From an uncultured Desulfobulbaceae bacterium (GTDB lineage Bacteria; Desulfobacterota; Desulfobulbia; Desulfobulbales; BM004): 64,000 nt of DNA. The translations under genes were made by a program, and so were the position numbers. The notes below the pieces were generated by a model that was given only the letters and a program-made list of their open reading frames with translations, was not told the DNA's origin and made no database searches. Shown piece after piece: positions 29,279 to 51,934 of this stretch. Every line of letters begins with the position of its first letter. Position 1 is the first letter of the stretch. The stretch is taken from the NCBI GenBank assembly GCA_945787325.1, contig CALZHP010000005.1, positions 476 through 64,475 of the forward strand, read 5' to 3'.

Positions 29279-29758
29279 CTATTGCCAGCTTACAATATCT
29301 TCGTCTTCACCTTCTCCACCGGGTTGGTTATCTTTTCCATAAGAATAAATATCAATTTCACCATGCTCTCCGGGATTTGAATAATTGTACGGTTTATCCC
29401 ATGGATCAAGAGGAACCTCTTTTTTCAGGTAGGGTCCGTCCCATTTTTCTATTCCTGGATCAGTAAATAGAGCATCAAGACCCTGGTTATTATCCGGGTA
29501 GTCTCCTACATCAAGTCGATAAGCATCCAGGGTTGTCATCAACATTTCAATTTGTGCTTTTGCAGTTCCTTTCCTTGCAGTTCCAAGTTTACCAAACATT
29601 TGTGGACCAACAAGACCTGCTATGAGTCCTAGAATTACCATGACAATTAGAAGCTCTATTAATGAAAATCCTTTTTCTGAAAAAAAGTTAATGTTTCGAG
29701 AGAACTTTAATTCCATTTCATTTAAGCAGTCACTTTTAATCATATTGTTTTGTTCCAT
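29279..29758 (-). CDS. gspG: Type II secretion major pseudopilin
   Basis: Prepilin motif KG|FSLIELLIVMVILGLIAGLV. GspG core reads KAQIEMLMTTLDAYRLDVGDYP...DPWDKPYNY...GKDNQPGGEGEDEDI. The true start is uncertain (possible at 29716). It is transcribed divergently from gspE. Confidence 0.85.
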   Translation of the reverse strand: MEQNNMIKSDCLNEMELKFSRNINFFSEKGFSLIELLIVMVILGLIAGLVGPQMFGKLGTARKGTAKAQIEMLMTTLDAYRLDVGDYPDNNQGLDALFTDPGIEKWDGPYLKKEVPLDPWDKPYNYSNPGEHGEIDIYSYGKDNQPGGEGEDEDIVSWQ

Positions 29759-30025
29759 TAATCTAGATTTATAATTTCATTTTAATATTCGTAAATTCAA
29801 CTAAGTTTCTGTTTATCAATGTAATACAAATAATACTAATAAACGAACAGCATCAGGTAAACATGAAAATTATTAAACTGAAAGATGTTAAATCGTTCAC
29901 CATTGACTGGGTATTACAATTCAATTATAATAATTAAGATTGTAATTGAATAATTTTATTACAAAAAAAAGAAACATTCTTATAGATTTGTCTAATAAGC
30001 CTAATAAAATCCTAAGGATAAAAAT

Positions 30026-31708
30026 ATGCCTCATTCTGTGTTCTTTACAAAAAAAGAAATGATTGGCAACCTCCTGATCCAGAAAGGCAAGCTTCAACAA
30101 AATCAGCTTGAGAGAGCTCTTTCACATCAGGCCACCGTGCCACACCGAATTGGTGACATTCTTATATCTCTTGGTTTTATAAGTGAAGAAGATCTCCTGG
30201 CTGCGCTGGCAGAAGAACTTTCTTTAACAGTTTACACACCGGAAGATGAAGACCAATTTTTACCTATTGAAATATCCCAATTATTTCATCGCGAACATCC
30301 TTTCGCGCTGATTAAAAACAGTAGCGATCAAAATATTCTCGTTGTTTCCGATCCTCTGGATGGAGACATTCTTTCAGCTGCCGACATGCTTTCCCCCGAG
30401 CCCTTTATTGTTCAACTTATTCAGGAATCTCACCTTAAAAAAATCATGGACCAGCACTATGGTCTTTCAATAAACGAATTAAATGAAGACAATTTTACCG
30501 GTGAAGATGCAGATATTGACAAGCTTAAAGATATGGCATCTGAAGCCCCGGTTATCAAATATGTCAACAATTTAATTGATACAGCTATTAACAGAAGAGC
30601 AAGCGATATACACCTTGAACCCTTTGAAGAGGGCATGATTATCCGGTTTCGCATTGACGGCATACTTCATGATTTTGAAATTCCCCCACAATCAATTCAG
30701 GCAGCAATTATTTCCAGGACAAAACTCCTGGCTGCACTTGATATTGCCGAAAGAAGAATTCCTCAGGATGGAAAAATATCAATGCGTATTTCAGGCAAGG
30801 AAATAGATCTTCGAGTTTCTACCATGCCGACGGTATATGGAGAAGGAGTGGTCATACGAATTCTTGAAAAAGGAAATGTAATCCTCGAGATGAGCCGTCT
30901 TGGTATGAACCATGAAATAGAAGAAAGATTCAAGCAGTTAATTAAAATTCCTAACGGCATTATAATGGTTACGGGCCCAACAGGGAGTGGTAAAACAACC
31001 ACACTTTACTGTGCTCTCAACCACATCAATTCAGGTAATAACAAGATCATTACAATTGAAGACCCTGTTGAATATCAGCTTCACGGAATTAATCAGATAC
31101 AGGTGCGGCCTGAGATAGGCTTAACCTTTGCAAAGGGACTGCGGTCAATAGTTCGCCAGGATCCGGATGTTATAATGATAGGTGAAATCCGAGATTATGA
31201 TACAGCTGAAATTGCGGTTCAATCTTCTCTTACCGGTCATCTGGTATTCAGTACACTTCATACTAATGATGCAATTTCAGCTGTCGTACGCATGATCGAT
31301 ATTGGGGTTGAGCGATTTCTCATATCTTCTTCTCTGAGAGCTGTTCTAGCACAACGTCTCGTTCGATGTATATGTACTCACTGCAAGGAAAAAAAGGGTC
31401 ATGCCTCAGAAATATTAGGCTATAAACCAAATGATGAGGACTTTGAGGTATTCAAGGGTGCTGGTTGTCCACAATGTTCCAACACAGGGTATTCCGGGCG
31501 TATTGGCCTTTACGAGTTGCTTGAAATAGACGATTCATTAAGCAGAGGTATTTCGCAGGGTGTAGATTTGTCTGACCTCAAGAAAATTGCTGACGACAAT
31601 GGTTTCCACTCGATGTTTGACGATGGCCTCCAGAAAGTGAAAGAAGGGAAAACATCCCTGTCTGAAGTTATGAGGGTTTGCAGAGGAACAGAAAATGAAT
31701 CTTTATGA
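30026..31708 (+). CDS. gspE: Type II secretion ATPase
   Basis: N-terminal T2SSE_N-type domain (IGDILISLGFISEEDLLAALAEE). Walker A VTGPTGSGKTTT. Asp/His boxes. Tetracysteine motif CTHC...CPQC. Confidence 0.92.
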   Translation: MPHSVFFTKKEMIGNLLIQKGKLQQNQLERALSHQATVPHRIGDILISLGFISEEDLLAALAEELSLTVYTPEDEDQFLPIEISQLFHREHPFALIKNSSDQNILVVSDPLDGDILSAADMLSPEPFIVQLIQESHLKKIMDQHYGLSINELNEDNFTGEDADIDKLKDMASEAPVIKYVNNLIDTAINRRASDIHLEPFEEGMIIRFRIDGILHDFEIPPQSIQAAIISRTKLLAALDIAERRIPQDGKISMRISGKEIDLRVSTMPTVYGEGVVIRILEKGNVILEMSRLGMNHEIEERFKQLIKIPNGIIMVTGPTGSGKTTTLYCALNHINSGNNKIITIEDPVEYQLHGINQIQVRPEIGLTFAKGLRSIVRQDPDVIMIGEIRDYDTAEIAVQSSLTGHLVFSTLHTNDAISAVVRMIDIGVERFLISSSLRAVLAQRLVRCICTHCKEKKGHASEILGYKPNDEDFEVFKGAGCPQCSNTGYSGRIGLYELLEIDDSLSRGISQGVDLSDLKKIADDNGFHSMFDDGLQKVKEGKTSLSEVMRVCRGTENESL

Positions 31709-32912
31709 TTACACGGCGCTCGAACATGATAACACTTTAGCTGAAGGTGTCTTAGAAGATATTGACAAAGCCGCTGTAGCAAAACGACTTATAATGCAGG
31801 GCTTGAGGCCTTTGGAAATACACCCTCATACCAAGACAGGTAAATCTTCATTATTTCTTGAAAAGTTTCGTACTAGCAAAGTAACTCGCACCGATATTAA
31901 TTTTTTCACTAAACAGATTGCCCTTTTATTAAATGCAGGTCTATCGCTGGACATGTCTCTCAGGGTTATGAAAGATCAAGCGTATAAGCCCACATTTAAA
32001 GAGTTTGTTGGAATCATTGAAAGGGACCTAAAAGAAGGAAAATCTTTTTCCCAGGCACTGGCTAATCATCCAAAGCAGTTTCCACCAATGTATGTAAACC
32101 TTGTCAAGGCGGGTGAAGAAGGTGGCATCCTTCCTGCCATGCTTATAAAAACTTCTGAATACCAGTCAACATTCCAAGATCTCAGACAATTTGTGATATC
32201 AGCATCTATTTACCCTGTTATCGTAATGGTTGTTGGGATCATAGCTGTAATTATTTTACTAACAGCAATTCTGCCTAAATTTGAAATCTTGTTTTCCGGT
32301 ATAGATCAGCAGCTTCCTATTCATGTAAAGGTTATGATGGATACAGCTAATTTTTTGACGGATCATTTTTTTATATCATTCCTTATACTTGTTACTCCTA
32401 TTATTTTATTTATTGCTTATGTAAGGACTAAAGACGGCAGGAAGCAAATGGATCACCTGGCACTTCAGATTCCACTGTTATCTACATTTGTACGGGACCT
32501 GGAAACAACGAAGATTTTCAGAACTCTTGAGGTGCTAGTAAACAACGGTGTTCACTTGGCGACAGCACTTAAAATAAGCAGTGGGGTTGCCAGTAACCTG
32601 GAATTTCGCCGAATGCTTAACCGTGCCACCCAGGCACTTAAAGAAGGACAAAGAGTTGGAAAAAAAATTAAAGGTGAAGGTCTGTTACCTGGCCTTGCTG
32701 TAGATCTGCTGTCTATTGGGGAAGAATCGGGAGAGGTTGGCCATGTCTGCGGCCAAGTTGCAGACCATTATGAAAACGAATTACGTGTTAAAATCAAACG
32801 ACTCGTTTCCATTATAGAGCCTTTCTTTATCGTGATTATTGCCATTGTTACCGGCTATGTGGTTATTTCCATGCTTTCTGTAATTCTCAGTATCAACGAA
32901 ATCGCCGGATGA
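31695..32912 (+). CDS. gspF: Type II secretion inner-membrane platform protein
   Basis: 405 aa with duplicated GspF/PilC-type domains (FTKQIALLLNAGLSLDMSL; FRTLEVLVNNGVHLATAL) and three TM segments. It overlaps the gspE end. Confidence 0.9.
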   Translation: MNLYDYTALEHDNTLAEGVLEDIDKAAVAKRLIMQGLRPLEIHPHTKTGKSSLFLEKFRTSKVTRTDINFFTKQIALLLNAGLSLDMSLRVMKDQAYKPTFKEFVGIIERDLKEGKSFSQALANHPKQFPPMYVNLVKAGEEGGILPAMLIKTSEYQSTFQDLRQFVISASIYPVIVMVVGIIAVIILLTAILPKFEILFSGIDQQLPIHVKVMMDTANFLTDHFFISFLILVTPIILFIAYVRTKDGRKQMDHLALQIPLLSTFVRDLETTKIFRTLEVLVNNGVHLATALKISSGVASNLEFRRMLNRATQALKEGQRVGKKIKGEGLLPGLAVDLLSIGEESGEVGHVCGQVADHYENELRVKIKRLVSIIEPFFIVIIAIVTGYVVISMLSVILSINEIAG

Positions 32913-33403
32913 TTAATATGCCGACGTTTTTCCCTTTCTGTAAAATAAAATCCAGATCAAATCCATTAAACAGGCAGGGTAAAGAAGCACGCTTATCAGG
33001 TTTTTCATTATTTGAACTGCTCATTGTACTTCTCATACTGGGAATAATATCAACAGTTGCGATTCCCGGCATTTCTCGCATGTTAAACAAACTGGAATTC
33101 AGAAGACAGACACAGTTGGTTATGGCCACTTTACGATACGCCAGGTTGATATCCGTATCAAAAGGCAAGGAAGTTCATGTTGTCTTAGATCCGGACAACA
33201 ACAAATCAATGCTTTTAAGCGGTGCCGTTGATGAAATAAGAGAATTTGATTTTGGTGAAGATGGCAATATAACAATTGAACCTCCAAGAATTATTTTTCT
33301 TGCAGAAAGCCATGTAACACCAGCAACCATCCTTATAAATCAAGGGAAAAGAACCGTGAAGATTTTTATGGATCCACTGACGGCAATGCCGATAATGGAA
33401 TGA
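32909..33403 (+). CDS. gspH: Minor pseudopilin, GspH/FimT-like
   Basis: Prepilin-type motif SG|FSLFELLIVLLILGIISTVAIPG followed by RYARLISVSKGKEV, typical of GspH. ATGA overlap with gspF. Confidence 0.65.
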   Translation: MINMPTFFPFCKIKSRSNPLNRQGKEARLSGFSLFELLIVLLILGIISTVAIPGISRMLNKLEFRRQTQLVMATLRYARLISVSKGKEVHVVLDPDNNKSMLLSGAVDEIREFDFGEDGNITIEPPRIIFLAESHVTPATILINQGKRTVKIFMDPLTAMPIME

Positions 33404-33417
33404 ACCTTGCTGAATAA

Positions 33418-33969
33418 ATGAAGAACTTATTTACCCAAAAAGGTTTTACTTTAATAGAGCTTTTGGTTGCCGTCCTGCTTTTAGCAATGATTACCACCAT
33501 GGTTTATTCGATATTGAATGTTGGAATCAGAGCCCAGGATAAAGGAGGAAAAAAGCTGCTTGCCATGGAAAGGCAATTAGGACTTCTAAACCTCCTCCAT
33601 CACCAGGTGAATAGTGCTTGGTACGATGTCATGAAAGATGAAATCACAATTTCTTCGGATGGTAATTACCTTAGAATCATAACCCGATATCCGTTAATTA
33701 ACAGATCCTCGGGTATTGTATTGGCTATGTATCGTTATGATGAGGGCGAACAGACACTCTATTACCTGGAAAAAAAGGACTACTATAATATCGATTATGA
33801 TGATGAATACTTACCGGCAATTGATGAGATGTACTTTCTTACTAAAACAGATGGATCATTTTTCATGGAATACGATTCTGAAGAAGGAAATTTATTGGTT
33901 GAATATTTGGAAAATCAGTATGTCTTGTTACCGCGTTGTGGCTTTAACCCTTATGTTATTAATAAATAA
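33418..33969 (+). CDS. Minor pseudopilin, GspJ-like
   Basis: N-terminal KG|FTLIELLVAVLLLAMITTMVYS prepilin motif. 183 aa. Confidence 0.6.
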   Translation: MKNLFTQKGFTLIELLVAVLLLAMITTMVYSILNVGIRAQDKGGKKLLAMERQLGLLNLLHHQVNSAWYDVMKDEITISSDGNYLRIITRYPLINRSSGIVLAMYRYDEGEQTLYYLEKKDYYNIDYDDEYLPAIDEMYFLTKTDGSFFMEYDSEEGNLLVEYLENQYVLLPRCGFNPYVINK

Positions 33970-33979
33970 ATTCAACTTT

Positions 33980-34336
33980 ATGGATTATGGTGGAATGTTC
34001 AATAAGATTAAATCTTTTCATTTAAATGTCAGGGATGAAAAACAGGGCTTTACACTGCTTGAAGTTCTGGTTGCGGTTACCATACTTGGCCTAGCATATG
34101 TAGCTATATTACAGAATTTTTCTGTTTCAACCAGGAACATAATCCGACTCGAAAAAAATATGACTAGTGTCCTGGAAAGATCAATAGCATTTGATCAGGC
34201 ACTTATGGACCCAGAGAGTGAAGAATATGATATAGCAGAATCTGAAACACCTTTTTTAGAAGGTTTGCTGTTTAACCTGGTGGTGATATCAGACAAACAG
34301 GGCGATTACTCTACCTTAAAACTTTCAAGAAGGTAG
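33980..34336 (+). CDS. Minor pseudopilin, GspI-like
   Basis: QG|FTLLEVLVAVTILGLAYVAILQNF prepilin motif. The track ORF 33716-34336 extends upstream into the previous gene; I trimmed it to the ATG at 33980 (alternative 33995). Confidence 0.55.
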   Translation: MDYGGMFNKIKSFHLNVRDEKQGFTLLEVLVAVTILGLAYVAILQNFSVSTRNIIRLEKNMTSVLERSIAFDQALMDPESEEYDIAESETPFLEGLLFNLVVISDKQGDYSTLKLSRR

Positions 34337-34349
34337 CTCTGTATTAATT

Positions 34350-35360
34350 ATGACAAATGAATTGAGCATAGTTTTTAATATGTGTTTTTTGTACGCAAAA
34401 AATGATCACAGGCAAAATGAAAAGGGCTTTGCGCTTATTATAGTAATTGTAGCTATGCTCCTTGCCAGCTTTCTTGCTTCACAACTGATTTTACAGGTAC
34501 GTACAAATTTGAAAATAGCCGATAATGTAAAAAAAAGAACTGCAACACGATACACATCAGAGGCTGGTATAAACCTTGGTCTTTTCAGACTTATGGACAG
34601 ACCATTGGATTTTTATAATGAAGAATATAAAATTTTTAATCTGGGCTATATTTATGAAACTGAAATATCCGGCAGAACAGTCAGTTATTATGCGGTTAAC
34701 GAAACCGGAAAAATTGATTTAAATAATGCGCCACGTAAACTGTTAGAACTTTATTTTGAATATCAAGGGCTCGATCCCGACCAAACGGCAACTTTAATTG
34801 ACTCCATACTGGATTGGAGAGATACTGATGATTTGAATAGATTAAACGGAGCTGAACAGGAATATTACCAGGGTTTAGAAGATCCTTATATTCCAAGAAA
34901 CGGCAATATTCGTGATCCTGGTGAGTTTTTTATGATAAAAGGGTCTGAACCACTATCTGGAAAAATTGTATCGGATGAAGTGTTTACGATACATAATAAG
35001 CAGAAGAAAATTAACTTTAACAGCCTGACTCCTTCTATGCTTGAATTTATAACGGGTGGAGATCAAGAAACAATAGATGCCTATAAAGAATCACAGGAGA
35101 CATATGGTAAGTTATCAGCTGTCCAGGCAAAGCTAATTCTGGGTGATGAAAGATTTAGCCTACTTAGCCCATATTTGATATATACGAACGGCCAAAACAG
35201 AAATTATTTTATTGTCGGTTTAAGCAAGTCGAGTTACTCTCTCAGTCCAACTGATGAAAAAATTGAAAAAAAACATGGACCTGGAACAAAAATAAGCGTT
35301 ATTATCGTTCTGGATAAGTATGGTTATAAATACTTATCCTGGAAGGAAAGTCTTATATGA
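34350..35360 (+). CDS. gspK: Minor pseudopilin GspK-like
   Basis: N-terminal hydrophobic KGFALIIVIVAMLLASFLAS. Motifs GKIDLNNAP, ILDWRDTDD and GAEQEYYQGL are typical of GspK. Confidence 0.7.
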   Translation: MTNELSIVFNMCFLYAKNDHRQNEKGFALIIVIVAMLLASFLASQLILQVRTNLKIADNVKKRTATRYTSEAGINLGLFRLMDRPLDFYNEEYKIFNLGYIYETEISGRTVSYYAVNETGKIDLNNAPRKLLELYFEYQGLDPDQTATLIDSILDWRDTDDLNRLNGAEQEYYQGLEDPYIPRNGNIRDPGEFFMIKGSEPLSGKIVSDEVFTIHNKQKKINFNSLTPSMLEFITGGDQETIDAYKESQETYGKLSAVQAKLILGDERFSLLSPYLIYTNGQNRNYFIVGLSKSSYSLSPTDEKIEKKHGPGTKISVIIVLDKYGYKYLSWKESLI

Positions 35361-36502
35361 AAGATGCTCTCGAAATAATCATTGAGAAAAACGGTGTTAA
35401 CATTTGTCACCCATTCTCTAATGATGCAGATATGTTTATTGATAATAAAAGTCTGCTGGGTGAAAGGTTGCTCGCCTATTGTTCAAGGAACAATATATCT
35501 TTTAGCAAGGTTTCATTATTTGTATCAGAAGAGCTGCTTTTTTTTAAATCTATAAATCTTCCTCTTAAAACACGTGATATAAAACAAGCTGTCGAATATC
35601 AACTTGATATGCTGATACCGTTTCCAAAAGAAACGATGCTCTTCAGTTATACTAACGAGCGGTTAAAAGAAAACTACAGGTTGAACCTTGTTGCTGTTAA
35701 TAAACAACTTGTGGAGCCTGTCGCACAGGAAGTGTCTAATGCCGGTTATATCATTACCGGCCTATTTCCAGAAAGCCAAAGATATATCAACCGCCTGGCA
35801 CAGAAGTCTAAATGGGCACTTGTTTTGCCTGGGAGATTTTCCAAGGTTTATACTTTTATAGGATCTCAACTTGAAGATCGTTTCCTGTGTGGCAAGGAGC
35901 CATCTTTTTCAGAACTGACTTCTCTTTGTAAATGTGACACAATTTATCATCAGCAACCCGTACAAGGCAGCAGGTACCAAAATGCCAGAGAACTCCTTGA
36001 GCAGAATCCAATACTTAAAGATTTCAACATGCTGCCGGAATCTTTCCGTCAACCAGACTATTTTAAAGTTGCAATTGTTGCTTTGATAGGTCTTAACCTC
36101 GCAGCATTATTAGTTCTGGGCGGGATAAAAGGATTTTCTTTAATACGAGCAGATAATAAAGTTGAAAACGCAATTAGCGAAATTATGCCACAAGTTAATG
36201 AGGTTAACAAATTGCGTTCCAAAGAAGATATGCTTTTAAAGAACCTGAACACTGTAGAAAGTATAAGTAAGAATCCAGACCTTATTGGTTTTTTAAAGAA
36301 CCTTTCCGAAAAGTTGCCTGAATCATCATATCTGGATCAGATGCGAATGGACAAGAAAAGCAGATCGTTTCATATTCAGGGTTATACAGAGAATGTTGGT
36401 GAATTGACTACTCAACTTCAATCCATAGGTGAGTCAAAGCTTAAATCAACAAGTCGCAGGAGAAACAGAACATACTTTCAGGTGGAGATCAGCCTGCCAT
36501 GA
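35357..36502 (+). CDS. GspL-like / PilM-PilN-type bitopic assembly protein
   Basis: The ~230-aa cytoplasmic part is followed by a single TM segment (FKVAIVALIGLNLAALLVLGGI) and a ~130-aa periplasmic part. Position between gspK and a GspM-like gene, with start overlapping gspK. The call rests on architecture, not on motifs. Confidence 0.5.
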   Translation: MKDALEIIIEKNGVNICHPFSNDADMFIDNKSLLGERLLAYCSRNNISFSKVSLFVSEELLFFKSINLPLKTRDIKQAVEYQLDMLIPFPKETMLFSYTNERLKENYRLNLVAVNKQLVEPVAQEVSNAGYIITGLFPESQRYINRLAQKSKWALVLPGRFSKVYTFIGSQLEDRFLCGKEPSFSELTSLCKCDTIYHQQPVQGSRYQNARELLEQNPILKDFNMLPESFRQPDYFKVAIVALIGLNLAALLVLGGIKGFSLIRADNKVENAISEIMPQVNEVNKLRSKEDMLLKNLNTVESISKNPDLIGFLKNLSEKLPESSYLDQMRMDKKSRSFHIQGYTENVGELTTQLQSIGESKLKSTSRRRNRTYFQVEISLP

Positions 36503-37056: not shown

Positions 37057-37092
37057 TAACGGTTTGTTGAATTATTAATATTATTTGAAATT

Positions 37093-37869: not shown

Positions 37870-37967
37870 TAAATATTGAAAATAATAGTCTTATATATAG
37901 AAATTTGTTAATTATTTTTTTATAAATCAATGATGATTCCAATATACATTTCTTTTGAAGGTGAATT

Positions 37968-41554: not shown

Positions 41555-44500
41555 ATGGGAAGAGAGGTATTTAAACATAGGCTGCTCTTCTTAACCCTTT
41601 TATGTTTTATAGGGTTATGGGGAGCTATTAACGCTGGCAACGCACAAGCTGTACTTACTGATGCGGATTGTGCCGTCTGCCATGCTGTTGTGGCAGCAGA
41701 TCCAATAACTCCACACCATAACCTTGCTTTTCAGCAAGGTAAATCATGTTCAGAGTGCCATAGGCAGGCTAACCCTGGTTGTACAGACTGCCATGGAGAC
41801 CCAATTGTAGACCCGGCATTTCATGAAAACGCTCACAATAAAATTAGCATAGCAACAGATTGTGCCGCCTGTCATGGAAGCCCGGACATTATTGAAGTTA
41901 CACACATGGAAAACTGCTTTGGTTGTCACGAGAGCACTGATCCAAATATCATCTCTATCATTGACAACGCCATTGCAGATCCCAATGCTTCGGTAAATTG
42001 TGAAACATGTCATGGCATGCTTGGCAACCCTCAACACGCCGACCCGGACCATAGCAGGATTAACATTTTTTCTGAATGTGCAACCTGCCATGGCGATCCT
42101 GAAATTGTTGGTATAACACATCTTGACAACTGTGCTACCTGTCATAGCAGCCCTCGACCAGAAGTACAAACAATTATCGATAATGCGGTTGCTGATCCCA
42201 CCCTGCAAGTTAACTGTGCTGATTGTCACGGTGTACTCGCGGAAGCTCATGCCGCTCCAGATCATACGGAAATTCAAATTTCCGCTGATTGTCAGGAGTG
42301 TCACGGCAGCCCGGATATTGTACCGGTAACCCACTTGAACAACTGTGCTACATGTCATGCCGCACCACAGGCAATTCAGGATATTATAGATGCTGCCCTG
42401 AATAATACTGCGGTTGCTACCTGTAATGCTTGTCATGGTATATTTAATGTACAACATCCTGAGCCTATACATGACAGCCTTTCCATCTTCCCGGAATGTG
42501 CTACATGTCATGGAGACAGTGATATAATTGGCGTAACTCATATGGTGCCTTCTACATATCCATGCGGGTACTGTCATGTCAGCACAGACCAGAATGTTAT
42601 TGATACGATCAGCGCTGGCGCTGCAGGTACACCTGTTAACTGTTCAGGTTGTCATGGTACGCTCGTAGTTGTTCATGCCGCACCGAATCATACTGAAATA
42701 CAGATTTCCGCCGACTGTCAGGCATGTCACGGCAGTGTTGATATCGTGCCGGTAACCCATAATAACAACTGTGCTACCTGCCATGCCGCACCACAGGCAA
42801 TCCAGGATATTATAGATGCTGCCCTGAATAATACTGCAGTAGCTACTTGTAACGCTTGTCATGGTACCTTCCAGGAACAGCACAATAATCCGCAGCACAA
42901 CCAGATTTCAGTATTTTCTGAGTGTGCCACCTGTCATGGGGATGCTGATATTGTCGGTGTAACCCATAGAGGCTTATGTGAATCATGCCATACAAGCACA
43001 AGTCAGAATGTTATTGATACAATCGCTGCTGGTGTAGCTGGTACTCCTGTAGATTGTTCTAACTGCCATGGAGTACTAGCAGAAGCACATGCAGCTCCTG
43101 ATCATACGGAAATTCAGATTTCCGCTGATTGTCAGGATTGCCACGGCAGTACTGACATTGTGCCGGTAACCCATAATAACAACTGTGCTACCTGCCATGC
43201 TGCACCGCAGGCAATACAAGCCATTATAGATGCCGCTCTTAACAACACGGCTACTGCAACTTGTAATGCCTGTCACGGAGTGTTCCAGGAAGTACATGCT
43301 AATGTAACTCACAGCAATGTTGAAATTTCACAGCCATGTACTACATGCCATGGTGTGAACCAGACTCCGATCGGTGTTCATAATGATGATTGTCTGCTGT
43401 GCCACACCAGCACAAGGCCAGATGTCATCCAGACCATTGAGGACGGTAAAGCCGGTCTACTGGTTGGTTGTGTAGACTGTCATGGTAACGTAGACACAAC
43501 TGGCCTGAACCATCTGCCGCAGCATGATACGGAAACGCCAGAGCCATTATGTCTCGATTGCCATGATCCGAACGTTGCTCGTGAGCATTTGAATATATAC
43601 CCCGACATTGTCGAAAACTGTTTCATTTGTCATGGTGATCCAATACTTCAATCTGTAATTGAAGCCGGCAGAAGCTCGAATCCGAATGCAGTAATCATTA
43701 CATGTGCAGACTGCCATATGTTCACAACATTTGAAACCCACAATGTTGCTCATACACAAGTTGTACTTCCGTCCGACGGCTGTATTGACTGCCACGATGC
43801 TAACACTGCTACTGAACATGTTGACGTGAGAGGATGGGGTTGTACAACCTGTCACAGCAGTACACGCCAGGATGTGCAGGATGCAATTGCCAGCGGTAAA
43901 GCTGGAAATCTTGTCAACTGTACAGATTGTCACCAAGGGCCACTTGATCATGCTGCACAGCATGACCACACATTCCTGAACGCACCGGAATGTGCAGACT
44001 GTCATAGTGCTAACGTCGTCACTGAACATGTTGACAACCAGGGCTTTGGCTGCGGTATCTGTCATGACGATCCGCTCCTGGTTGAATTCATTATTAACCC
44101 GGGTATGGCCGGTACCGACATATTCTGTCAGGATTGTCATATACCGCCAACCGATCACACCAATGCTCATAATATGACGGATGTAACTGATCCTGCCTGT
44201 CTTGAGTGTCATGATTCGGATGTATCTGTAGAGCATGTGACAAACAATGGACTCAGCTGTACTGTCTGTCATGGTAACCCTGCATACGATCCTATCATTG
44301 ATAGCGGCAAGGGAGACACAGGTACACTTGTAACCTGTGATGCCTGTCATGGTGCAAACGCAGGAGATCATGTGGCGGCTCATGATATGACCCGTCTCAA
44401 CACAGGCAACTGTGCGGACTGTCACAACGCAAATGTTGTTACTGAACATGTAACTGATCACCTGTTAAGCTGTTCAACATGCCATTCAAGCACAGATCCT

Positions 44501-45952
44501 GCAGTTCAGGCCGCAATTTCTGCTGGTCAGGCCGGCCAGGAAGTATTCTGTTCAGATTGTCATGTCGGAGCCGGTATGCATACCGAACAGCACGATATGG
44601 TCATTCTGCCTGAAGCATACTGCGCAGACTGCCATGCTGGCAATGTGGTTATAGAACATGTTGACAACCGTGGTCTCAGCTGTGATACATGTCATGGCGA
44701 TCCTGTCCTACAGGATATAATTCAGGCAGGAATGAATGGCACTGCGCTTGATTGTTTGGATTGTCATATGACTACAGATCATATTACAGCCCATGACAAT
44801 ACAGATGTACCATCTCCTGAATGTGCCGACTGTCATAACGGCAATGTTGCCACCGAGCACTTCACCGATGGCGGCCTGAGTTGTCTGGTATGTCATGGTA
44901 ACACAGCTTACGATGCAATCATTGCTGCCGGCCAGGCTGGGACACTTGTAACGTGTACTGATTGTCATGGAGTATCTGATCATAGGGATGCGCACGACAT
45001 GACGGTTGTACCGCAGCCTGTTTGCGCTGACTGCCATGATCCGAACGTAGTCGTTGAGCATGTTGATAACCGTGGTTTGGATTGCGGTGTATGCCATAAC
45101 GCAACCTATCAGAGTATCATTGATTCCGGTATAGCCGGCAACCAGGTTAGCTGCCTGGCCTGTCATGGTGATCCGGACCATCATACCAACTCTAATGAAG
45201 CTTTAACCGGTAATTGTACCCATTGTCATGCTCCACCAAACAGCGCAATGGACGCACCTGTTCAGGGAGCTTGTCGTCAATGTCACATAAACAGCAACGG
45301 CTATGTACAGACATTTAATGGTACTACTGTACATGCATTTAATACCAACGGTGCTATTCAGGACTTTGGTGCCTGTTTTGCCTGCCACTCACCGCAGCCT
45401 TACCATGGTAAGCCCAACACTTGGCCTGGCTTTTTCAATGAAAATGCCGTTGCCCCGGGTAGAGGATCTTTTAATATCTTCTTCAGTCAGTTTAATCCGA
45501 GTTGTGCACCTGATTGTGAAGGTACATTCTATGAAGATCTAAACGGATACGGAGAGGACGGTCAACCCCAACGAGATGGTGGCGATACTTGGCGCAATCC
45601 AGCTATTAACTTTGACTGGGTAACAATTGAGCACATGGGTAATATGTATGATGTACCTGCATTCTCAAGCAGCCCAATGAATGGCGGAGGAGGTGATCCT
45701 CCTACCATGAATGACTCCGTGGTTATCACCTATGCTGATTACTCTTCTTGGAGTGATAGACTGACAGTTTACGCTGAGAACGCACTCGATGACGGAGCTA
45801 ATCTGAGCTTAACCTGGTGTGGTGACTCTTATTCAATGAGTTACAGTTCGAATAATGACCGCTGGGAGAAGCAAGTTGATAATGTAAACGACTGTGGTGA
45901 TGTCACTGTAACATCTGACATGGGTGGTAGTGACACTGCAACACCCAATTAA
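41555..45952 (+). CDS. Giant multihaem c-type cytochrome (about 54 CxxCH motifs, 1465 aa), secreted
   Basis: RBS gggagg. Signal peptide ending AQA. My hand count finds 54 CxxCH motifs between residues ~38 and ~1240. A haem-free ~225-aa C-terminal region follows. Confidence 0.9.
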   Translation: MGREVFKHRLLFLTLLCFIGLWGAINAGNAQAVLTDADCAVCHAVVAADPITPHHNLAFQQGKSCSECHRQANPGCTDCHGDPIVDPAFHENAHNKISIATDCAACHGSPDIIEVTHMENCFGCHESTDPNIISIIDNAIADPNASVNCETCHGMLGNPQHADPDHSRINIFSECATCHGDPEIVGITHLDNCATCHSSPRPEVQTIIDNAVADPTLQVNCADCHGVLAEAHAAPDHTEIQISADCQECHGSPDIVPVTHLNNCATCHAAPQAIQDIIDAALNNTAVATCNACHGIFNVQHPEPIHDSLSIFPECATCHGDSDIIGVTHMVPSTYPCGYCHVSTDQNVIDTISAGAAGTPVNCSGCHGTLVVVHAAPNHTEIQISADCQACHGSVDIVPVTHNNNCATCHAAPQAIQDIIDAALNNTAVATCNACHGTFQEQHNNPQHNQISVFSECATCHGDADIVGVTHRGLCESCHTSTSQNVIDTIAAGVAGTPVDCSNCHGVLAEAHAAPDHTEIQISADCQDCHGSTDIVPVTHNNNCATCHAAPQAIQAIIDAALNNTATATCNACHGVFQEVHANVTHSNVEISQPCTTCHGVNQTPIGVHNDDCLLCHTSTRPDVIQTIEDGKAGLLVGCVDCHGNVDTTGLNHLPQHDTETPEPLCLDCHDPNVAREHLNIYPDIVENCFICHGDPILQSVIEAGRSSNPNAVIITCADCHMFTTFETHNVAHTQVVLPSDGCIDCHDANTATEHVDVRGWGCTTCHSSTRQDVQDAIASGKAGNLVNCTDCHQGPLDHAAQHDHTFLNAPECADCHSANVVTEHVDNQGFGCGICHDDPLLVEFIINPGMAGTDIFCQDCHIPPTDHTNAHNMTDVTDPACLECHDSDVSVEHVTNNGLSCTVCHGNPAYDPIIDSGKGDTGTLVTCDACHGANAGDHVAAHDMTRLNTGNCADCHNANVVTEHVTDHLLSCSTCHSSTDPAVQAAISAGQAGQEVFCSDCHVGAGMHTEQHDMVILPEAYCADCHAGNVVIEHVDNRGLSCDTCHGDPVLQDIIQAGMNGTALDCLDCHMTTDHITAHDNTDVPSPECADCHNGNVATEHFTDGGLSCLVCHGNTAYDAIIAAGQAGTLVTCTDCHGVSDHRDAHDMTVVPQPVCADCHDPNVVVEHVDNRGLDCGVCHNATYQSIIDSGIAGNQVSCLACHGDPDHHTNSNEALTGNCTHCHAPPNSAMDAPVQGACRQCHINSNGYVQTFNGTTVHAFNTNGAIQDFGACFACHSPQPYHGKPNTWPGFFNENAVAPGRGSFNIFFSQFNPSCAPDCEGTFYEDLNGYGEDGQPQRDGGDTWRNPAINFDWVTIEHMGNMYDVPAFSSSPMNGGGGDPPTMNDSVVITYADYSSWSDRLTVYAENALDDGANLSLTWCGDSYSMSYSSNNDRWEKQVDNVNDCGDVTVTSDMGGSDTATPN
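42230..43290 (+). repeat. Three tandem near-identical ~414-426-nt coding repeats inside cytochrome 1 (six CxxCH per unit)
   Basis: Units start at about 42230, 42656 and 43070. Long stretches are nearly identical at DNA level. One example is ccggtaacccataataacaactgtgctacctgccatgc.gcacc.caggcaat.ca.g..attatagatgc, which encodes HAAPDHTEIQISADCQxCHGSxDIVPVTHxNNCATCHAAPQAIQxIIDAALNNTAxATCNACHG. Confidence 0.8.
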
Positions 45953-45991
45953 TATAAACCAACTGCTTTATTATAAGCAGTACAAACCAAA

Positions 45992-46030
45992 AGGGGCGGC
46001 TTCGTGAATCGAGGCCGCCTCTTTTTTTTA
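45992..46030 (+). terminator. Rho-independent terminator of cassette 1
   Basis: Stem aggggcggcttcg / cgaggccgcctct (with G-U pairs) and loop tgaat, followed by ttttttt. Confidence 0.8.
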
Positions 46031-46270
46031 TCTATTGTATGCATGGATTAAAAGAACCTTCTTCCTGTTTACAGAATTAGATATCTTTGAAGTACTTATT
46101 CAGTTTCCTAAAAATGAAGCATATACAACCTTGATCATTTAGTAAGATTACCGCTTCCTCCTAAATAAATTTCCAGTAAATTTGCAGGATATTCTCAAAG
46201 TGAAAATACATTCTTATTCACTGTACAAACTTAACCAAATTGTAATTTATGTAATTTCTGTTTATTATCA

Positions 46271-46465
46271 ATGATAAGTGAGACCGCCCGCTATCGCTCA
46301 CCTGTCTCACTTATCGCCGGCTGTTGAGCCCTTCGGCACGAACACCCTCGAGCGTTGCTCACGCTCCACCCTTTAAATGCGTTCTAACAAACTGCGTCTG
46401 CGGTCATTTATAAACATGAATGATTATAAAAGGTACGCGGGCTCGCGGCTCAACAGCCGGCGTTA
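46271..46465 (+). repeat. ~195-nt structured repeat, copy B
   Basis: See copy A. Copy B has the 12-bp hairpin gataagtgagac/gtctcacttatc (46274-46314). It also has a perfect 15-bp long-range stem, gccggctgttgagcc (46316-46330) with ggctcaacagccggc (46447-46461). Confidence 0.7.
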
Positions 46466-46607
46466 TGTTTTATAATAAGTGTAGACATTTTAATTCCTTA
46501 GCTATTACAACTATCTCAATCCTCATATTTTTGATGATACTACGTCAATCTTAACTTGATTCTTCAAATAATTAAATCGCAATATAAATTGATAAAAACA
46601 AACCAAC

Positions 46608-46655
46608 TTGACACAAAATGTCAGCTCAATATCGAATATTGACATTAATTGTCAC
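46608..46655. promoter_or_regulatory. Two 17-bp TTGACA-N5-TGTCA palindromes upstream of cassette 2
   Basis: Sites are 46608-46624 ttgacacaaaatgtcag and 46639-46655 ttgacattaattgtcac, spaced 31 bp apart. They lie 100-150 bp upstream of the sigma54-type promoter. The half-site is the same as in cassette 1. Confidence 0.55.
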
Positions 46656-46753: not shown

Positions 46754-46769
46754 AGGCACATATTTTGCT
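46754..46769 (+). promoter_or_regulatory. Sigma54-type -24/-12 promoter of cytochrome cassette 2
   Basis: aGGCACatattTTGCt has the same core and spacing as the cassette 1 promoter. It lies 89 nt upstream of the ATG at 46857. Confidence 0.6.
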
Positions 46770-46856: not shown

Positions 46857-47201
46857 ATGACCAAATTGAATTATAAACAAAAACTCTTTATTGCTATCCT
46901 GTCTGTTTTCATCTTTACACTCTTTGGATTTTTAAATTTCAAAACTTCTCCATCAATCGCAGCCGAAATACAAATGGATACAGTTTCTGGGTCCGTTGTT
47001 GAAGCACACAATGTTGGAGACCGACTACTTGTATTAATTAAAAACAGAAAGGACATGTCCAAGAAGTGGGTTGCCGTTCCAGCAACTGATATTTCTGTTG
47101 GTGACAGGGTCTTATTTAAGCCCGGTATAGTTATGAATAATTTCAATATAAAAAGTTTAAACAGAACTTATTCAAGAATTGTATTATCACCCGGATCTTG
47201 A
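46857..47201 (+). CDS. Small secreted protein, cytochrome-cassette partner (paralog of 41148-41498)
   Basis: I chose the ATG at 46857 because aggtggag lies 8 nt upstream; the track starts at the GTG at 46845. Signal/TM segment LFIAILSVFIFTLFGFL. The C-terminal segment is homologous to the cassette 1 partner. Confidence 0.7.
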   Translation: MTKLNYKQKLFIAILSVFIFTLFGFLNFKTSPSIAAEIQMDTVSGSVVEAHNVGDRLLVLIKNRKDMSKKWVAVPATDISVGDRVLFKPGIVMNNFNIKSLNRTYSRIVLSPGS

Positions 47202-47269
47202 TCCGAGTCACTAATATAGGTTGAAGCATGAACGCAACTATTAAGGAAGGGAAAATCGGGAGGTATCAA

Positions 47270-50200
47270 ATGGGGATTATTACATTAAATACACGGTTAT
47301 TTCTGATAACCATGTTTGCCGCTGCCGCGCTTTGTTTTATCTATACAGGTAACGCCATGGCATTGACATCGGCAGATTGTGCAGAATGCCATGCACCAAT
47401 TGTCGCTGACCCAATAAGTCCACATCATAATCTTGCAACTCAACAGGCCCTTTCGTGTTCAGCATGTCACCGTATGGCAAGTCCAACCTGTACTGACTGC
47501 CATGGAGACCCAATAATTGACCCGGCATTTCATGAAAATATTCATTCGAACATCAGCATCGCTCCTGACTGTTCCTCATGCCATAGCAACCCTGATATTA
47601 TCCCCGTCACTCACTCTAATAACTGTACAGTTTGCCATGACAGTACTAACCAGGTTGTTATTGATACCATAGCAGCCGGTTCGCAAGGTACTGCCGTCAA
47701 CTGTGAAAACTGTCACGGTGCCCTTTCTGAAGTACATACCCCAACACACGCTCAAATCAGTATCGCAACCGATTGTGCCGGCTGTCACGGTGACCCCGCC
47801 ATAGTACCTGTTACTCATAGCGATAACTGTGCAACATGTCATAACAGTACTGACCAGGCAGTAATTGATACCATTACTGCAGGTTTCAATGGCACACAGG
47901 TCGACTGTAACAATTGTCATATAAGCATTAACCATACAGCGCAACACGATCAAACCTTTGTACCTGAAGCGATTTGCGCCGATTGTCATGACGGTAATGT
48001 TGCGGTAGAACATACAGTTAATCACTCTTCAACTTGTACTGCTTGTCATAATGACCCATTGCTTGCTTCAATAATTGATAGTGGTAAAGCGGGCAATGCT
48101 GTAGTTTGCACGGACTGTCATACAGCTACAACACTTGCTTCTCATAATTCTCTTCATGACAAAACAGTACTTCCATCAGATGGATGTATTGAATGTCATG
48201 ATGCCAATGTAGCAGTTGAACATGTTGATAACAGGTCAATAGGCTGTACAGACTGCCATAACAGTACTCGACAAGAAGTACTGGATGCAATCGCCAACGG
48301 TATCTCTGGAATGACAGTTAACTGTTCAGATTGTCACCTTGGACCTCTTGATCATCAGGCAGCTCATGATATGACAAGGACAGACGATGTTTCCTGTCAG
48401 GACTGTCATAACCAGAATGTTGTAACAGAGCATGTCGACAACCAGGGCATTAGTTGCAGCAGCTGTCATGATGACCCAATGATACAAACTATCATTGCTT
48501 CAGGTGTGGCTGGCAACATTGTAGTGTGTGCTGACTGCCACATTATGTCCGACCACACAAACGCCCATAATAATACAGATGTAACGGATTCTGCCTGTCT
48601 CGAATGTCACGATCCGGATGTATCTGTTGAACACGTTGCCAACGGCGGCCTCAGCTGCCTTGTTTGCCATGGCAACACGACTTACGATGCGATCATTGAC
48701 AGCGGTAAAGGTATAGCAGGTACACTCGTAACCTGTGATGCATGTCACACAAATGCCGGTGATCATACAGCGGCACATGATATGACAAGTCTTAACTCAG
48801 GCGACTGTGCCGAGTGTCATAATGCCAATGTAGTTACAGAGCATGTTGATGTACGACTGTTAAGCTGTTCAACATGCCACTCTAGCACAGATGCTACGGT
48901 TCGGGCTGTAATAGAATCCGGCCAGAACGGTCAGGAAGTATTTTGTTCAGATTGTCATGTGGGTGCCGGAATGCACTCAGATGAGCATGATATGGTAGAC
49001 GTACCAGATTCTTTATGTGCAGACTGCCATAATGGAAATGTTGTAATTGAGCACGTTGATAATCGAGCTCTTACCTGTAATACATGTCACGGTGATCCTG
49101 AACTTCAGAGAATCATTCAGTCCGGCATGAATGGAACTGCTCTTGATTGTTACGATTGTCATATGACAACTGATCATGCAGCTGAACACGACAATACAGA
49201 CGTTCCATCAGCGGAATGTGCAGAATGTCATGACGGCAATGTTACAGTAGAGCATATTGACAACCGCGGCTTAAGTTGTCTTGTCTGTCACGGCAGTGCT
49301 ACGTACGACTCAATCATTGCAGCGGGACAGACTGGTACACAAGTAACATGTACAGACTGTCACGGTGCAGCAGATCATAGTGCGGCCCATGACATGACTG
49401 TTGTACCGCAAGCGGTATGTGCTGATTGTCATGATCCGAATGTAGTAGTAGAACACGTTGATAACCGAGGTTTCGATTGCGGAATCTGTCATAACAGCTC
49501 ATATCAAGGCATAATTGATTCAGGTATTGCCGGCAATCAGGTTAGTTGTTTAAACTGCCATAATACTCCGGATCATCATGCAAACTCGAATGACGCAAAA
49601 TCAGGGAACTGTACACTGTGTCATCAAGTAACGAGTAGTGCAATGGATGCTCCTGTTATTGGCGCCTGTCGCGAATGTCATATAAATAATCAGGGATATG
49701 TCCTTCAGAAGAACCTGTCGAGTGTGTTAACTAGCCATAGAATTAACACCCAGGGCGATATCCAGGATTTTGGTGCCTGTATTACCTGCCACAACTACAG
49801 CAGCAATTCTGCTCCTTATGTCCAACCTTATCACGCTAAGCCGAGCAGCAAGCCGCGATACTATATCAACAACATTACCGAGGCTCCGGGCCGTGGTTCC
49901 TTCAACCTCTTCTACGACCAATGGCATAGAAATAGTGGCGAAGACAACGAAGGCAAGGAACCAGGATGTGGTGAAGATAGCAGCTGTAACGGTAGCAGCT
50001 GGCGCAATCCAGAAATCAGTTTCCAGTGGTTAACTATAGATTACAATGGAAATCTGTATGATGTACCGGCTTTCTCTGATAGTGGTAATAGACCGGACGG
50101 AGGAGGTCCTCCTGTTGATCCGCCTACCGGTGGTGGCTGTGAAATTGATGCGAATGGGACCTATGTTGAATCCGAAAATTATAATGCCCTTGGCAACAAC

Positions 50201-50917
50201 TGGTCCGTACAAAGTGGCGACGGAAACGGCAATGGTTATCTGTATGCTACAGCAAACAGCACTAGCTCTGTTTCCGGTAGCCCGGCTGAATACGACCTTA
50301 CCTTTACCGAGTCCGGCACCTACTACATCTGGTTCCGTGGTAAAGATAATGGAAGTTCAGATGACAACTCACTCTGGTATGGAGTTGATGGTTCCATGAA
50401 AGGCAACGCTACAACTCCTGCAACAAACAATAACTGGAGTTGGACAAGGACCCCTCATAATACTGGTCCAAATCCAACCCGCATAACCATAAACAGCGCC
50501 GGCACATATACCGTTACTATATGGGCCAGGGAGAATGGCTTCCGATTCGACGGCTTCTATGTAACCAAGAGCAGCAGCTCAATATCCGGTTCCATTCCCA
50601 GCGGTGCTGACATTGTTGATCCCACCAACTGCGGTGGCGGAGGTGAACCACCTGTAGATCCACCTCCTGCTAACGATGACTCCGTAAACATCACCTATGC
50701 AGATTATTCATCATGGAGAGATAGGTTAAGGGTCTATGCTGAGAATGACCTCGATGATGAAGCGAATCTGAGCTTGACCTGGTGTGGAGAATCCTATTCG
50801 ATGAGTTATATTTCGAGTAATGACCGCTGGGAGAAGGAAGTCAACAACGTCAACGACTGTGGTGATGTTACGGTAACTTCAGATAGGGGCGGCAGTGATA
50901 CTGCAACGGCCAACTAA
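47270..50917 (+). CDS. Giant multihaem c-type cytochrome (about 36 CxxCH motifs) with lectin/CBM-like beta-sandwich insertion, secreted
   Basis: I preferred the ATG at 47270 (gggagg RBS; MGIITLNTRLFLITMF... parallels the cytochrome 1 N-terminus). The track start is 47228. My hand count gives 36 CxxCH motifs. Long stretches are collinear with the C-terminal two thirds of cytochrome 1. Confidence 0.9.
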   Translation: MGIITLNTRLFLITMFAAAALCFIYTGNAMALTSADCAECHAPIVADPISPHHNLATQQALSCSACHRMASPTCTDCHGDPIIDPAFHENIHSNISIAPDCSSCHSNPDIIPVTHSNNCTVCHDSTNQVVIDTIAAGSQGTAVNCENCHGALSEVHTPTHAQISIATDCAGCHGDPAIVPVTHSDNCATCHNSTDQAVIDTITAGFNGTQVDCNNCHISINHTAQHDQTFVPEAICADCHDGNVAVEHTVNHSSTCTACHNDPLLASIIDSGKAGNAVVCTDCHTATTLASHNSLHDKTVLPSDGCIECHDANVAVEHVDNRSIGCTDCHNSTRQEVLDAIANGISGMTVNCSDCHLGPLDHQAAHDMTRTDDVSCQDCHNQNVVTEHVDNQGISCSSCHDDPMIQTIIASGVAGNIVVCADCHIMSDHTNAHNNTDVTDSACLECHDPDVSVEHVANGGLSCLVCHGNTTYDAIIDSGKGIAGTLVTCDACHTNAGDHTAAHDMTSLNSGDCAECHNANVVTEHVDVRLLSCSTCHSSTDATVRAVIESGQNGQEVFCSDCHVGAGMHSDEHDMVDVPDSLCADCHNGNVVIEHVDNRALTCNTCHGDPELQRIIQSGMNGTALDCYDCHMTTDHAAEHDNTDVPSAECAECHDGNVTVEHIDNRGLSCLVCHGSATYDSIIAAGQTGTQVTCTDCHGAADHSAAHDMTVVPQAVCADCHDPNVVVEHVDNRGFDCGICHNSSYQGIIDSGIAGNQVSCLNCHNTPDHHANSNDAKSGNCTLCHQVTSSAMDAPVIGACRECHINNQGYVLQKNLSSVLTSHRINTQGDIQDFGACITCHNYSSNSAPYVQPYHAKPSSKPRYYINNITEAPGRGSFNLFYDQWHRNSGEDNEGKEPGCGEDSSCNGSSWRNPEISFQWLTIDYNGNLYDVPAFSDSGNRPDGGGPPVDPPTGGGCEIDANGTYVESENYNALGNNWSVQSGDGNGNGYLYATANSTSSVSGSPAEYDLTFTESGTYYIWFRGKDNGSSDDNSLWYGVDGSMKGNATTPATNNNWSWTRTPHNTGPNPTRITINSAGTYTVTIWARENGFRFDGFYVTKSSSSISGSIPSGADIVDPTNCGGGGEPPVDPPPANDDSVNITYADYSSWRDRLRVYAENDLDDEANLSLTWCGESYSMSYISSNDRWEKEVNNVNDCGDVTVTSDRGGSDTATAN

Positions 50918-50960
50918 TAATAAGGCAATCCTGCTGATGTAAGCAGTATAACTATAAAAA

Positions 50961-50998
50961 GCGGCTTCGCAAAATCGAAGCCGCTTTTTTATTTTTTT
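50961..50998 (+). terminator. Rho-independent terminator of cassette 2
   Basis: Stem gcggcttcg / cgaagccgc with loop caaaat, followed by ttttttattttttt. Confidence 0.85.
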
Positions 50999-51917: not shown

Positions 51918-51934
51918 TACCAGGAATATATTTA

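Follow-up and report, generated by a model that had tools for sequence, protein, structure and literature searches.

Here, we describe a locus of an uncultured Desulfobulbaceae bacterium (contig CALZHP010000005.1, positions 476 to 64,475; the whole 64,000-nucleotide stretch is the window) in which a complete type II secretion system (T2SS) gene cluster is followed by two cassettes, each encoding a small Sec-exported protein with an oligonucleotide/oligosaccharide-binding (OB) fold and a giant multihaem cytochrome (A or B) behind a sigma54-type promoter (coordinates in Table 1). The locus joins two units of different age, a clade-typical T2SS and a subclade cassette present once or twice. By its distribution, the T2SS of the window is best read as the ordinary, widely distributed general secretion system of its lineage, and not as a dedicated one, because the same type of T2SS is widespread without cytochromes. 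The cassette of sigma54 promoter, OB-fold protein and giant cytochrome is in turn best read as a subclade-specific addition after gspD, duplicated in the window. Export of the cytochromes through the adjoining T2SS is the best-supported hypothesis, to which we give an even chance, and the cytochromes would then be conditional, co-located cargo of a general T2SS.

The linkage recurs in relatives. A search with the conserved cytochrome tail over GTDB, each species being represented by a single genome, yielded 20 loci, whose cytochromes have 6 to 79 haems and whose genomes are Desulfobulbales, Desulfuromonadales and related metagenome-assembled genomes (MAGs). T2SS genes lie at most 10 kb upstream in two of them, one from the Rifle-aquifer MAG RIFOXYD12_FULL_57_12 (L004), the other from a Desulfobulbales MAG (L010). 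The first of these is collinear with the window, with gspE to gspM, a gspC-like gene, gspD, the small protein, a cytochrome of 2104 aa and 79 haems, ThiS and CarboxypepD_reg/beta-helix proteins, and L010 has the gspC-like gene, gspD, the small protein and a 74-haem cytochrome. Searched from the GspD side, metagenomes yielded about 50 clusters that share the gene order of the window, gspC-like gene included, and whose GspD is 47-64% identical. In the locus with the closest GspD relative (L030, 64% identity), a signal-peptide gene starts about 355 nt after gspD at the contig end, and its ribosome-binding region and N-terminus match the RIFOXYD12 small protein; L030 is thus probably a further lineage with a linked cassette, its contig ending inside the small-protein gene. 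The window, L030, RIFOXYD12 and L010 form one clade in a GspD neighbour-joining tree (a rough distance tree with no support values), and all informative sister branches are without the cytochrome. Linked loci span 39-62% GC (39%, 55% and 62%) and 57-64% GspD identity; a linkage that survives such divergence is suggestive of selection and would also agree with descent alone. All relatives are represented by MAG or metagenome contigs; several are truncated, probably because repetitive cytochrome genes assemble poorly. A first-pass annotation of this DNA had pointed to synteny of gspD with a small protein and a cytochrome of more than 30 haems as a check on its export proposal: RIFOXYD12 and L010 have this arrangement, so the adjacency is not absent from all relatives with homologous cytochromes, and most other loci lack it.

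Several observations weigh against export through the adjoining T2SS. Among the orthologous T2SS loci, 26 extend 1.5 kb or more beyond gspD, and in 25 of these neither the small protein nor a cytochrome lies 3' of gspD (GspD of the cytochrome-free type is 47-55% identical); the sole positive (L065), with small protein and cytochrome, comes from the RIFOXYD12 species. About 12 of the 14 informative homologous cytochrome loci have no T2SS nearby (tblastn with all Gsp proteins of the window), and homologues of 61 and 75 haems are among those that stand alone. In three or four related lineages, the genes could have stayed adjacent by descent without functional coupling, no T2SS targeting signal is recognisable from sequence, and a further T2SS or a porin-cytochrome system may be encoded outside the 64 kb covered. 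The cassettes appear to be transcription units apart from the gsp operon, given the terminator-like hairpin after gspD and their own sigma54 promoters. Characterised Geobacter c7 polymers, for example GSU1996, are regarded as periplasmic. Finally, the match of cytochrome B to a carbohydrate-binding module (CBM) falls in a region modelled by AlphaFold2 (AF2) with a predicted local distance difference test score (pLDDT) of 50-67.

The first-pass annotation went further and took the T2SS to be the dedicated exporter of the two cytochromes. The adjacency on which this was built, together with its conservation within the subclade, is real; set against a T2SS evolved for these cytochromes are the same T2SS type, gene order and GspC-like gene in the 25 cytochrome-free loci, the unlinked state of most homologous cytochromes, the terminator-like hairpin that closes gspD and the independent regulation of the cassettes, and we consider a dedicated exporter very unlikely. 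Content after gspD in the 25 sister loci is heterogeneous, with small cytoplasmic proteins, HtpG, or secreted proteins of PKD, RHS, M10-RTX or RCC1 type. A "cargo slot" 3' of gspD was considered as a rule and rejected, as housekeeping genes stand there in some loci and several of the secreted proteins resemble type I secretion substrates or other cargo. One cytochrome-free sister locus (L040) has a 7-haem MtrC-like cytochrome on the opposite strand (9062-10465, minus), 1.4 kb after gspD.

The T2SS cluster (29279-40148) holds a complete Gsp-type set: gspG points away from gspE-F-H-J-I-K-L-M, after which come a gspC-like gene without a PDZ domain and gspD, which encodes a lipoprotein. Junctions between the co-directional genes are overlaps of 4-14 nt or gaps of 10-98 nt. 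The full pseudopilus and secretin set with overlapping or abutting genes that had been read from the sequence at first pass is correct wherever profile matches and junctions could check it. Assignment to T2SS follows from GspD with its N0 domain (Pfam type_II_gspD_N0, Secretin_N and Secretin domains are all present), GspE with GspF, and GspG with the minor pseudopilins H, I, J and K, of which GspK is T2SS-specific. GspG matches Pfam T2SSG (E=1.8e-40) and carries the N_methyl motif G/FSLIEL. GspE scores 605.8 bits with TIGR02533, slightly under the cut-off of 630, and GspF 314 bits with TIGR02120 against a strict cut-off of 424, GspE and GspF still being the respective top-scoring models. Matches of the gspJ-like product to gspJ, gspI and ComG models are all weak, the gspL-like gene has the same position in all orthologous clusters, and residues G20 and C21 of GspD are invariant across three orthologues. 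GspE residues 13-63 form an N-terminal MshEN-type motif that binds cyclic di-GMP (c-di-GMP) (NF053729, 56.7 bits, cut-off 38); secretion may therefore be gated by c-di-GMP through the T2SS ATPase. As the first-pass annotation had noted, the prepilin peptidase gspO/PilD is missing from the 64 kb window in profile scans of its proteins. This gene is commonly encoded elsewhere in the genome, and its absence from the window does not disqualify the T2SS.

No canonical GspC with a PDZ domain is present, as had been noted; the 258-aa protein then listed as unknown is most likely, from its position and remote matches, the GspC equivalent, with a homology region (HR) domain and without PDZ, at scores under curated thresholds. 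The GspC_delta model NF041515 is matched by 9 of 12 orthologues of this protein from related loci (best 6e-5), all with scores far under the curated cut-off (18 bits versus 150). Searched against the PDB, a profile of the 258-aa family matches OutC at its HR region (6hcg_e, E=0.13), and a gene of this type holds the gspC position, directly 5' of gspD, in about 45 orthologous clusters. The C-terminal half of the protein is a Pro/Lys/Arg-rich low-complexity tail. The family thus resembles deltaproteobacterial GspC_delta in being bitopic, encoded directly 5' of gspD and provided with an HR-like segment, and differs in its scores well below the cut-off and its Pro/Lys/Arg-rich C-terminal half.

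Downstream of gspD, the two paralogous cassettes each have palindromes, a -24/-12 promoter, a small secreted protein, a cytochrome with 54 or 36 CxxCH motifs and a terminator, in agreement with their first description. The hairpin after gspD, read directly in the sequence, is absent from the terminator-scanner output, and 1 kb of AT-rich spacer separates it from the first cassette. The motif GGCAC-N5-TTGCW has two matches in the 64 kb window, both 5' of the small-protein ATGs (0.36 expected; at least two matches anywhere in 8 of 100 shuffled windows), and the palindrome TTGACA-N5-TGTCA has five copies, all 100-230 nt 5' of the two cassette promoters. The combination of a GG-N10-GC element and upstream palindromes is found at the two cassettes only. 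The terminator scan places strong hairpins with T-runs after both cytochrome genes (45989-46025 and 50956-50989). A gene for a sigma54 activator (Sigma54_activat type) was not found in the 64 kb window. Among the relatives, a sigma54-like motif 5' of the small gene passes the motif search in the RIFOXYD12 species alone; one further match sits inside a frameshifted cytochrome (L001). Promoter-related elements are present in the RIFOXYD12 locus (L024) and weaker in L010, which has GGCACAGTTCTTTCA, near-identical to the cassette 1 promoter and with a degenerate -12 element, and no motif was seen by eye in the 436 nt at hand for L030.

Cytochromes A and B are 60% identical over 898 residues and consist of tandem trihaem c7 domains, as in polymeric c7 cytochromes (PF14522, Cytochrome_C7: E=1e-69 in 13 stretches of A and E=6e-44 in 9 stretches of B). 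The CxxCH pattern recurs every three motifs, or about 69-70 aa, with spacings of 26/24-25/18-20 residues. Both have about two His per haem (113 for the 54 haems of A) and would be essentially all-bis-His, as expected of c7/c3-type wires. Both have Sec-type signal peptides without a lipobox (that of A ends ...GNAQA/VL). With 54 and 36 haems and no lipobox at the predicted cleavage sites, neither belongs to the MtrC/OmcA decahaem type, and the PF22113 match in cytochrome A is partial with no individually significant stretch. The tail common to both (residues ~1195-1380 of A) comprises the last haems with QDFGAC..CH, YHxKP, APGRGSFNIF and WRNPxIxF, and is scarce in protein databases (four matches). 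Non-haem modules come after it. The C-terminal ~80 aa of both are confidently modelled as a beta-sandwich (AF2 pLDDT ~90); the AF2 model of the cytochrome B tail, which leaves out the haem-binding part and most of the linker, has a mean pLDDT of 52 and is confident in the last 80 residues alone. Foldseek matches the insert of cytochrome B to CBM6/CBM35 (TM-score 0.6-0.73 on the target), a tentative assignment, and phmmer against the PDB gave no match. A close homologue, from the RIFOXYD12 relative, ends in a TIG/IPT domain instead. CBM6/35-like, immunoglobulin (Ig)-like and TIG C-terminal modules are typical of surface or extracellular proteins, and as modelled they would fit an extracellular location.

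These features bear on a second account, in which periplasmic storage or "periplasmic wire" cytochromes were inserted after gspD in one ancestor and kept by descent, the T2SS being unrelated. Such a historical accident would agree with a c7 repeat type of the same trihaem period as in Geobacter c7 polymers, with cassettes that are separate transcription units, with heterogeneous sequence 3' of gspD in sister clades and with the unlinked state of most homologous cytochromes and most orthologous T2SS clusters, whereas it leaves unexplained an adjacency that persists across lineages of 39%, 55% and 62% GC with only 57-62% GspD identity. The linked cassettes are moreover a distinct subtype, all with the OB-fold gene and, in the window and RIFOXYD12, with a clear sigma54 promoter, and the C-terminal modules are of surface or extracellular type. 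The GSU1996 rod measures ~1 nm per haem, a value at which a rod of 54-79 haems would exceed the width of the periplasm. We regard the accident as possible and somewhat unlikely.

Export by another route was also weighed, with the cytochromes extracellular but leaving via a porin/beta-barrel or a type IV pilus-like system encoded elsewhere, and the T2SS serving different substrates, for instance the beta-helix proteins encoded downstream. In line with this, homologues of 61-75 haems stand alone, with no T2SS within 10 kb, and four secreted CarboxypepD_reg/beta-helix proteins are syntenic with the locus. The exit of extracellular cytochrome filaments is debated, and porin-type models are favoured by some (bioRxiv 10.1101/2025.10.22.684050). 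On the other side, neither in the window nor in L024 do the cassettes contain or adjoin genes for porins, beta-barrels or pili, and the T2SS is the only outer-membrane translocon encoded nearby. In our view, another route is improbable. The secreted proteins follow a ThiS-ThiF fusion and are collinear with the post-cytochrome genes of RIFOXYD12_FULL_57_12 (L024 16937-20396; the first gene has 57% tblastn identity to L004), and the CarboxypepD_reg/NosD-like proteins could be further T2SS cargo or matrix components.

The small proteins A and B are 39% identical (E=6e-12), and their genes end 27-57 nt 5' of the cytochrome genes. The AF2 model of A, with pLDDT above 94 in the beta core/barrel across six strands, gives Foldseek top matches that are all OB folds, weak as they are (E ~4e-3, TM-score 0.45-0.5); a five-stranded beta-barrel after a signal peptide is thus recognised at the fold level, with no Pfam match. 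In the protein collection, the 114-aa form of B is entry P0011 (NCBI-derived), and neither B in its GTG-46845 form nor cytochrome B occurs in exact form. The other five of seven queries, namely cytochrome A, GspD, GspE, the 258-aa protein and small protein A, each form a cluster of one at 90% identity. A single-sequence search with A returned the self-match alone, and a four-sequence profile was needed to find homologues. A full HMMER scan then gave a domain family without a Pfam model, of 3,795 representative clusters at E<=0.001 (P0012-P0173 among its members); the motif is GYTY...W...LNRTFDxIIFS, and in most members a signal peptide precedes two or three copies in tandem. The domain was rejected as a general marker of T2SS/cytochrome loci, since the distant homologues P0012 (Scalindua rubra) and P0014 have neither a T2SS nor a cytochrome nearby; among cytochrome loci, profile matches to the small OB-fold gene are confined to T2SS-linked cassettes. 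Its topology, a transmembrane/signal segment plus an OB fold, resembles CcmE (43rd in the Foldseek list). A role as a CcmE-like haem chaperone was set aside, as there is no conserved His or HxxxY-type motif. Speculatively, the OB-fold protein might serve the T2SS-linked cassettes specifically, as a periplasmic chaperone or adaptor.

Under the preferred reading, export through the adjoining T2SS, an activator binding the TTGACA-N5-TGTCA sites would switch on the sigma54-dependent cassette. The cytochrome would cross the inner membrane by Sec, as its signal peptide suggests, and receive its haems in the periplasm, following established c-type cytochrome biogenesis. The pseudopilus might then push the folded, thin haem rod through the neighbouring GspD secretin, and the C-terminal beta-sandwich modules may hold the cytochrome on the surface or matrix for long-range electron transfer. 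A bolder version, which we think unlikely, makes the cassette of this Desulfobulbales subclade a purpose-built T2SS cargo module: the OB-fold protein would keep a haem rod of ~40-80 nm export-competent, or pass it on to the PDZ-less GspC and the GspD N0 domain. Extrusion of the rod by the secretin would follow, and its CBM/Ig-like end would anchor it in the matrix. If true, this would be the first genetically defined exit route for a giant multihaem cytochrome.

Two copies of a structured GC-rich element flank cassette 1 in inverted orientation, in otherwise AT-rich spacers. They are 75-78% identical (blastn) and share an architecture of a 5' hairpin and a long closing stem with apparently compensatory differences. 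Rfam gave no family at gathering thresholds across the window, with chance-level matches alone in the first intergenic region, and no copy of the ~200-nt element was found among the fetched relative loci. The element could be a repeat of the miniature inverted-repeat transposable element (MITE) type, a structured RNA, or a recombination substrate tied to the cassette duplication.

Other observations concern stand-alone members of the cytochrome tail family and the remaining genes of the window. In L005 (1-5795, minus), a stand-alone member faces two other multihaem cytochromes (17 and 5 haems). In L001 (5696-10998, a contig of the European Nucleotide Archive), a member with more than 60 haems runs through four or five frames, apparently because of frameshifts in the assembly. 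The tail-family cytochromes of L001 and L006 both follow groES, which suggests a different conserved neighbourhood (groES/groEL) for some stand-alone members. Elsewhere in the window, a Wood-Ljungdahl cluster (9103-18534, minus) encodes carbon monoxide dehydrogenase (Prismane family), the acetyl-CoA synthase beta subunit, CdhD, FolD and an 870-aa fusion of a methylenetetrahydrofolate reductase domain with a CdhD-like domain. Two convergent pairs of OpuAC-like and PhnD-like periplasmic binding proteins occupy 58411-62153 (58411-59942, plus; 60037-62153, minus, with a tetratricopeptide repeat protein between the members of the minus pair) and look like an inverted duplication.

Table 1. Coordinates of the T2SS genes, cassettes and associated elements in the window.
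Feature	Position	Strand	Evidence
gspG, major pseudopilin	29279-29758	-	divergent from gspE; TIGR01710 160.9 bits (cut-off 88.85)
gspE, ATPase	30026-31708	+	Pfam T2SSE 459 bits, E=1e-137
gspF, inner-membrane platform protein	31695-32912	+	Pfam T2SSF 175 bits, two stretches
gspH-like minor pseudopilin	32909-33403	+	N_methyl motif; TIGR01708 E=8.6e-11 (below cut-off); Pfam GspH E=0.0036
gspJ-like minor pseudopilin, prepilin-type	33418-33969	+	N_methyl 31.9 bits; assigned mainly by position
gspI-like minor pseudopilin	33980-34336	+	prepilin motif QGFTLLEVLVAV in translation; conserved in relatives (tblastn)
gspK, minor pseudopilin	34350-35360	+	Pfam T2SSK_1st 46.6 bits (cut-off 26.2); NF037980 E=1e-16
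gspL-like assembly protein	35357-36502	+	weak PilM_2 (N-terminal half) and PilN (C-terminal half) matches
gspM	36499-37056	+	NF040576 GspM_XpsM E=8.6e-14, 51.6 bits (cut-off 60); Pfam PilO and T2SSM_b weak
PDZ-less GspC-like bitopic protein, 258 aa	37093-37869	+	NF041515 GspC_delta E=0.0018; directly 5' of gspD
gspD secretin, lipoprotein	37968-40148	+	TIGR02517 442.6 bits (cut-off 351.35); lipobox IISGC
Terminator-like hairpin and T-run after gspD	40175-40209	+	AGCCTTACGTT-aagc-AACGTTAGGCT then GTTTTTATT
Structured GC-rich element, copy 1 (~200 nt)	40218-40424	-	folds at -70.8 kcal/mol, z=-5.55
Three TTGACA-N5-TGTCA palindromes, cassette 1	40820-40897		30-31 bp spacing; candidate activator (enhancer-binding protein, EBP) sites
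Sigma54 -24/-12 promoter, cassette 1	41048-41062	+	GGCACAGTTCTTGCT; 86 nt 5' of ATG 41148
Small Sec-exported OB-fold protein A, 116 aa	41148-41498	+	AF2 mean pLDDT 85.5; Foldseek OB folds
Giant cytochrome A, 1465 aa, 54 CxxCH	41555-45952	+	c7-type trihaem repeats, conserved tail, C-terminal beta-sandwich
Intrinsic terminator, cassette 1	45989-46035	+	16-bp stem, 9 GC pairs, then T-run
Structured GC-rich element, copy 2	46272-46478	+	folds at -79.2 kcal/mol, z=-6.04
Two TTGACA-N5-TGTCA palindromes, cassette 2	46608-46655		31 bp spacing; candidate EBP sites
Sigma54 -24/-12 promoter, cassette 2	46755-46769	+	GGCACATATTTTGCT; 88 nt 5' of ATG 46857
Small OB-fold protein B, 114 aa from ATG	46857-47201	+	paralogue of A; alternative open reading frame start GTG 46845
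Giant cytochrome B, 1229 aa, 36 CxxCH	47228-50917	+	c7 repeats, CBM6/35-like insert, C-terminal beta-sandwich
Intrinsic terminator, cassette 2	50956-50999	+	14-bp stem, then T-run
Possibly associated: ThiS-ThiF fusion and four secreted CarboxypepD_reg/beta-helix (NosD-like) proteins	51117-58389	+	Pfam

The exit route of very large or polymeric extracellular cytochromes is an open question; according to a preprint of 2025, how cytochrome nanowires are secreted "remains unanswered" (bioRxiv 10.1101/2025.10.22.684050). Neither T2SS-dependent surface placement of multihaem cytochromes nor the existence of giant cytochromes is new; a full-text literature search found no report of a T2SS beside giant (c7-type) cytochromes in Desulfobulbales or Desulfuromonadales, nor of the OB-fold/sigma54 cassette. 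That several uncultured lineages combine giant cytochromes with a canonical T2SS offers a concrete, testable export model, and the compact, separately inducible cargo cassette with its private accessory protein a minimal gene set for heterologous reconstitution, within the limit set by the distribution data, namely that the T2SS is ordinary and the linkage exceptional in this cytochrome family.

Among known systems, MtrC and OmcA of Shewanella reach the cell surface through its T2SS, according to Shi et al. (2008) as cited in PMC7096707. The likeness to Shewanella oneidensis Gsp, in the terms of that citing article, is a T2SS proposed to move fully folded, haem-loaded cytochromes across the outer membrane. 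MtrC and OmcA carry 10 haems and are lipoproteins, fixed through an acylated cysteine and docked on the MtrAB porin, whereas the cytochromes of the window have 36-54 haems, Sec signal peptides without a lipobox, c7 repeats and C-terminal beta-sandwiches, and their genes adjoin gspD. The gsp and mtr loci of Shewanella lie apart, to our knowledge. Geobacter sulfurreducens GSU1996, GSU0592 and GSU2210 share the tandem ~70-aa trihaem c7 domains that form a continuous haem wire. These polymers have 12-27 haems and no conserved tail or CBM/Ig-like modules, and we know of no T2SS linkage, sigma54 cassette or OB-fold partner for them. Desulfuromonas acetexigens has giant cytochromes with up to 86 haem motifs that are expressed during electrode and iron-oxide (mineral) respiration (PMC12133095). 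They are likewise single polypeptides with tens of haems in Desulfobacterota, and the paper is silent on secretion systems. Homologues of the tail domain of the window proteins are present in Desulfuromonadales MAGs. For Geobacter, a pseudopilus or a piston of T2SS type has also been implicated in the release of redox proteins, in OxpG-dependent OmpB and PilA-N/C-dependent OmcS/OmcZ. The substrates there are a multicopper oxidase and small filament-forming cytochromes, and the role of the pilus is disputed, whereas the machine of the window is a canonical Gsp set with GspK and GspD.

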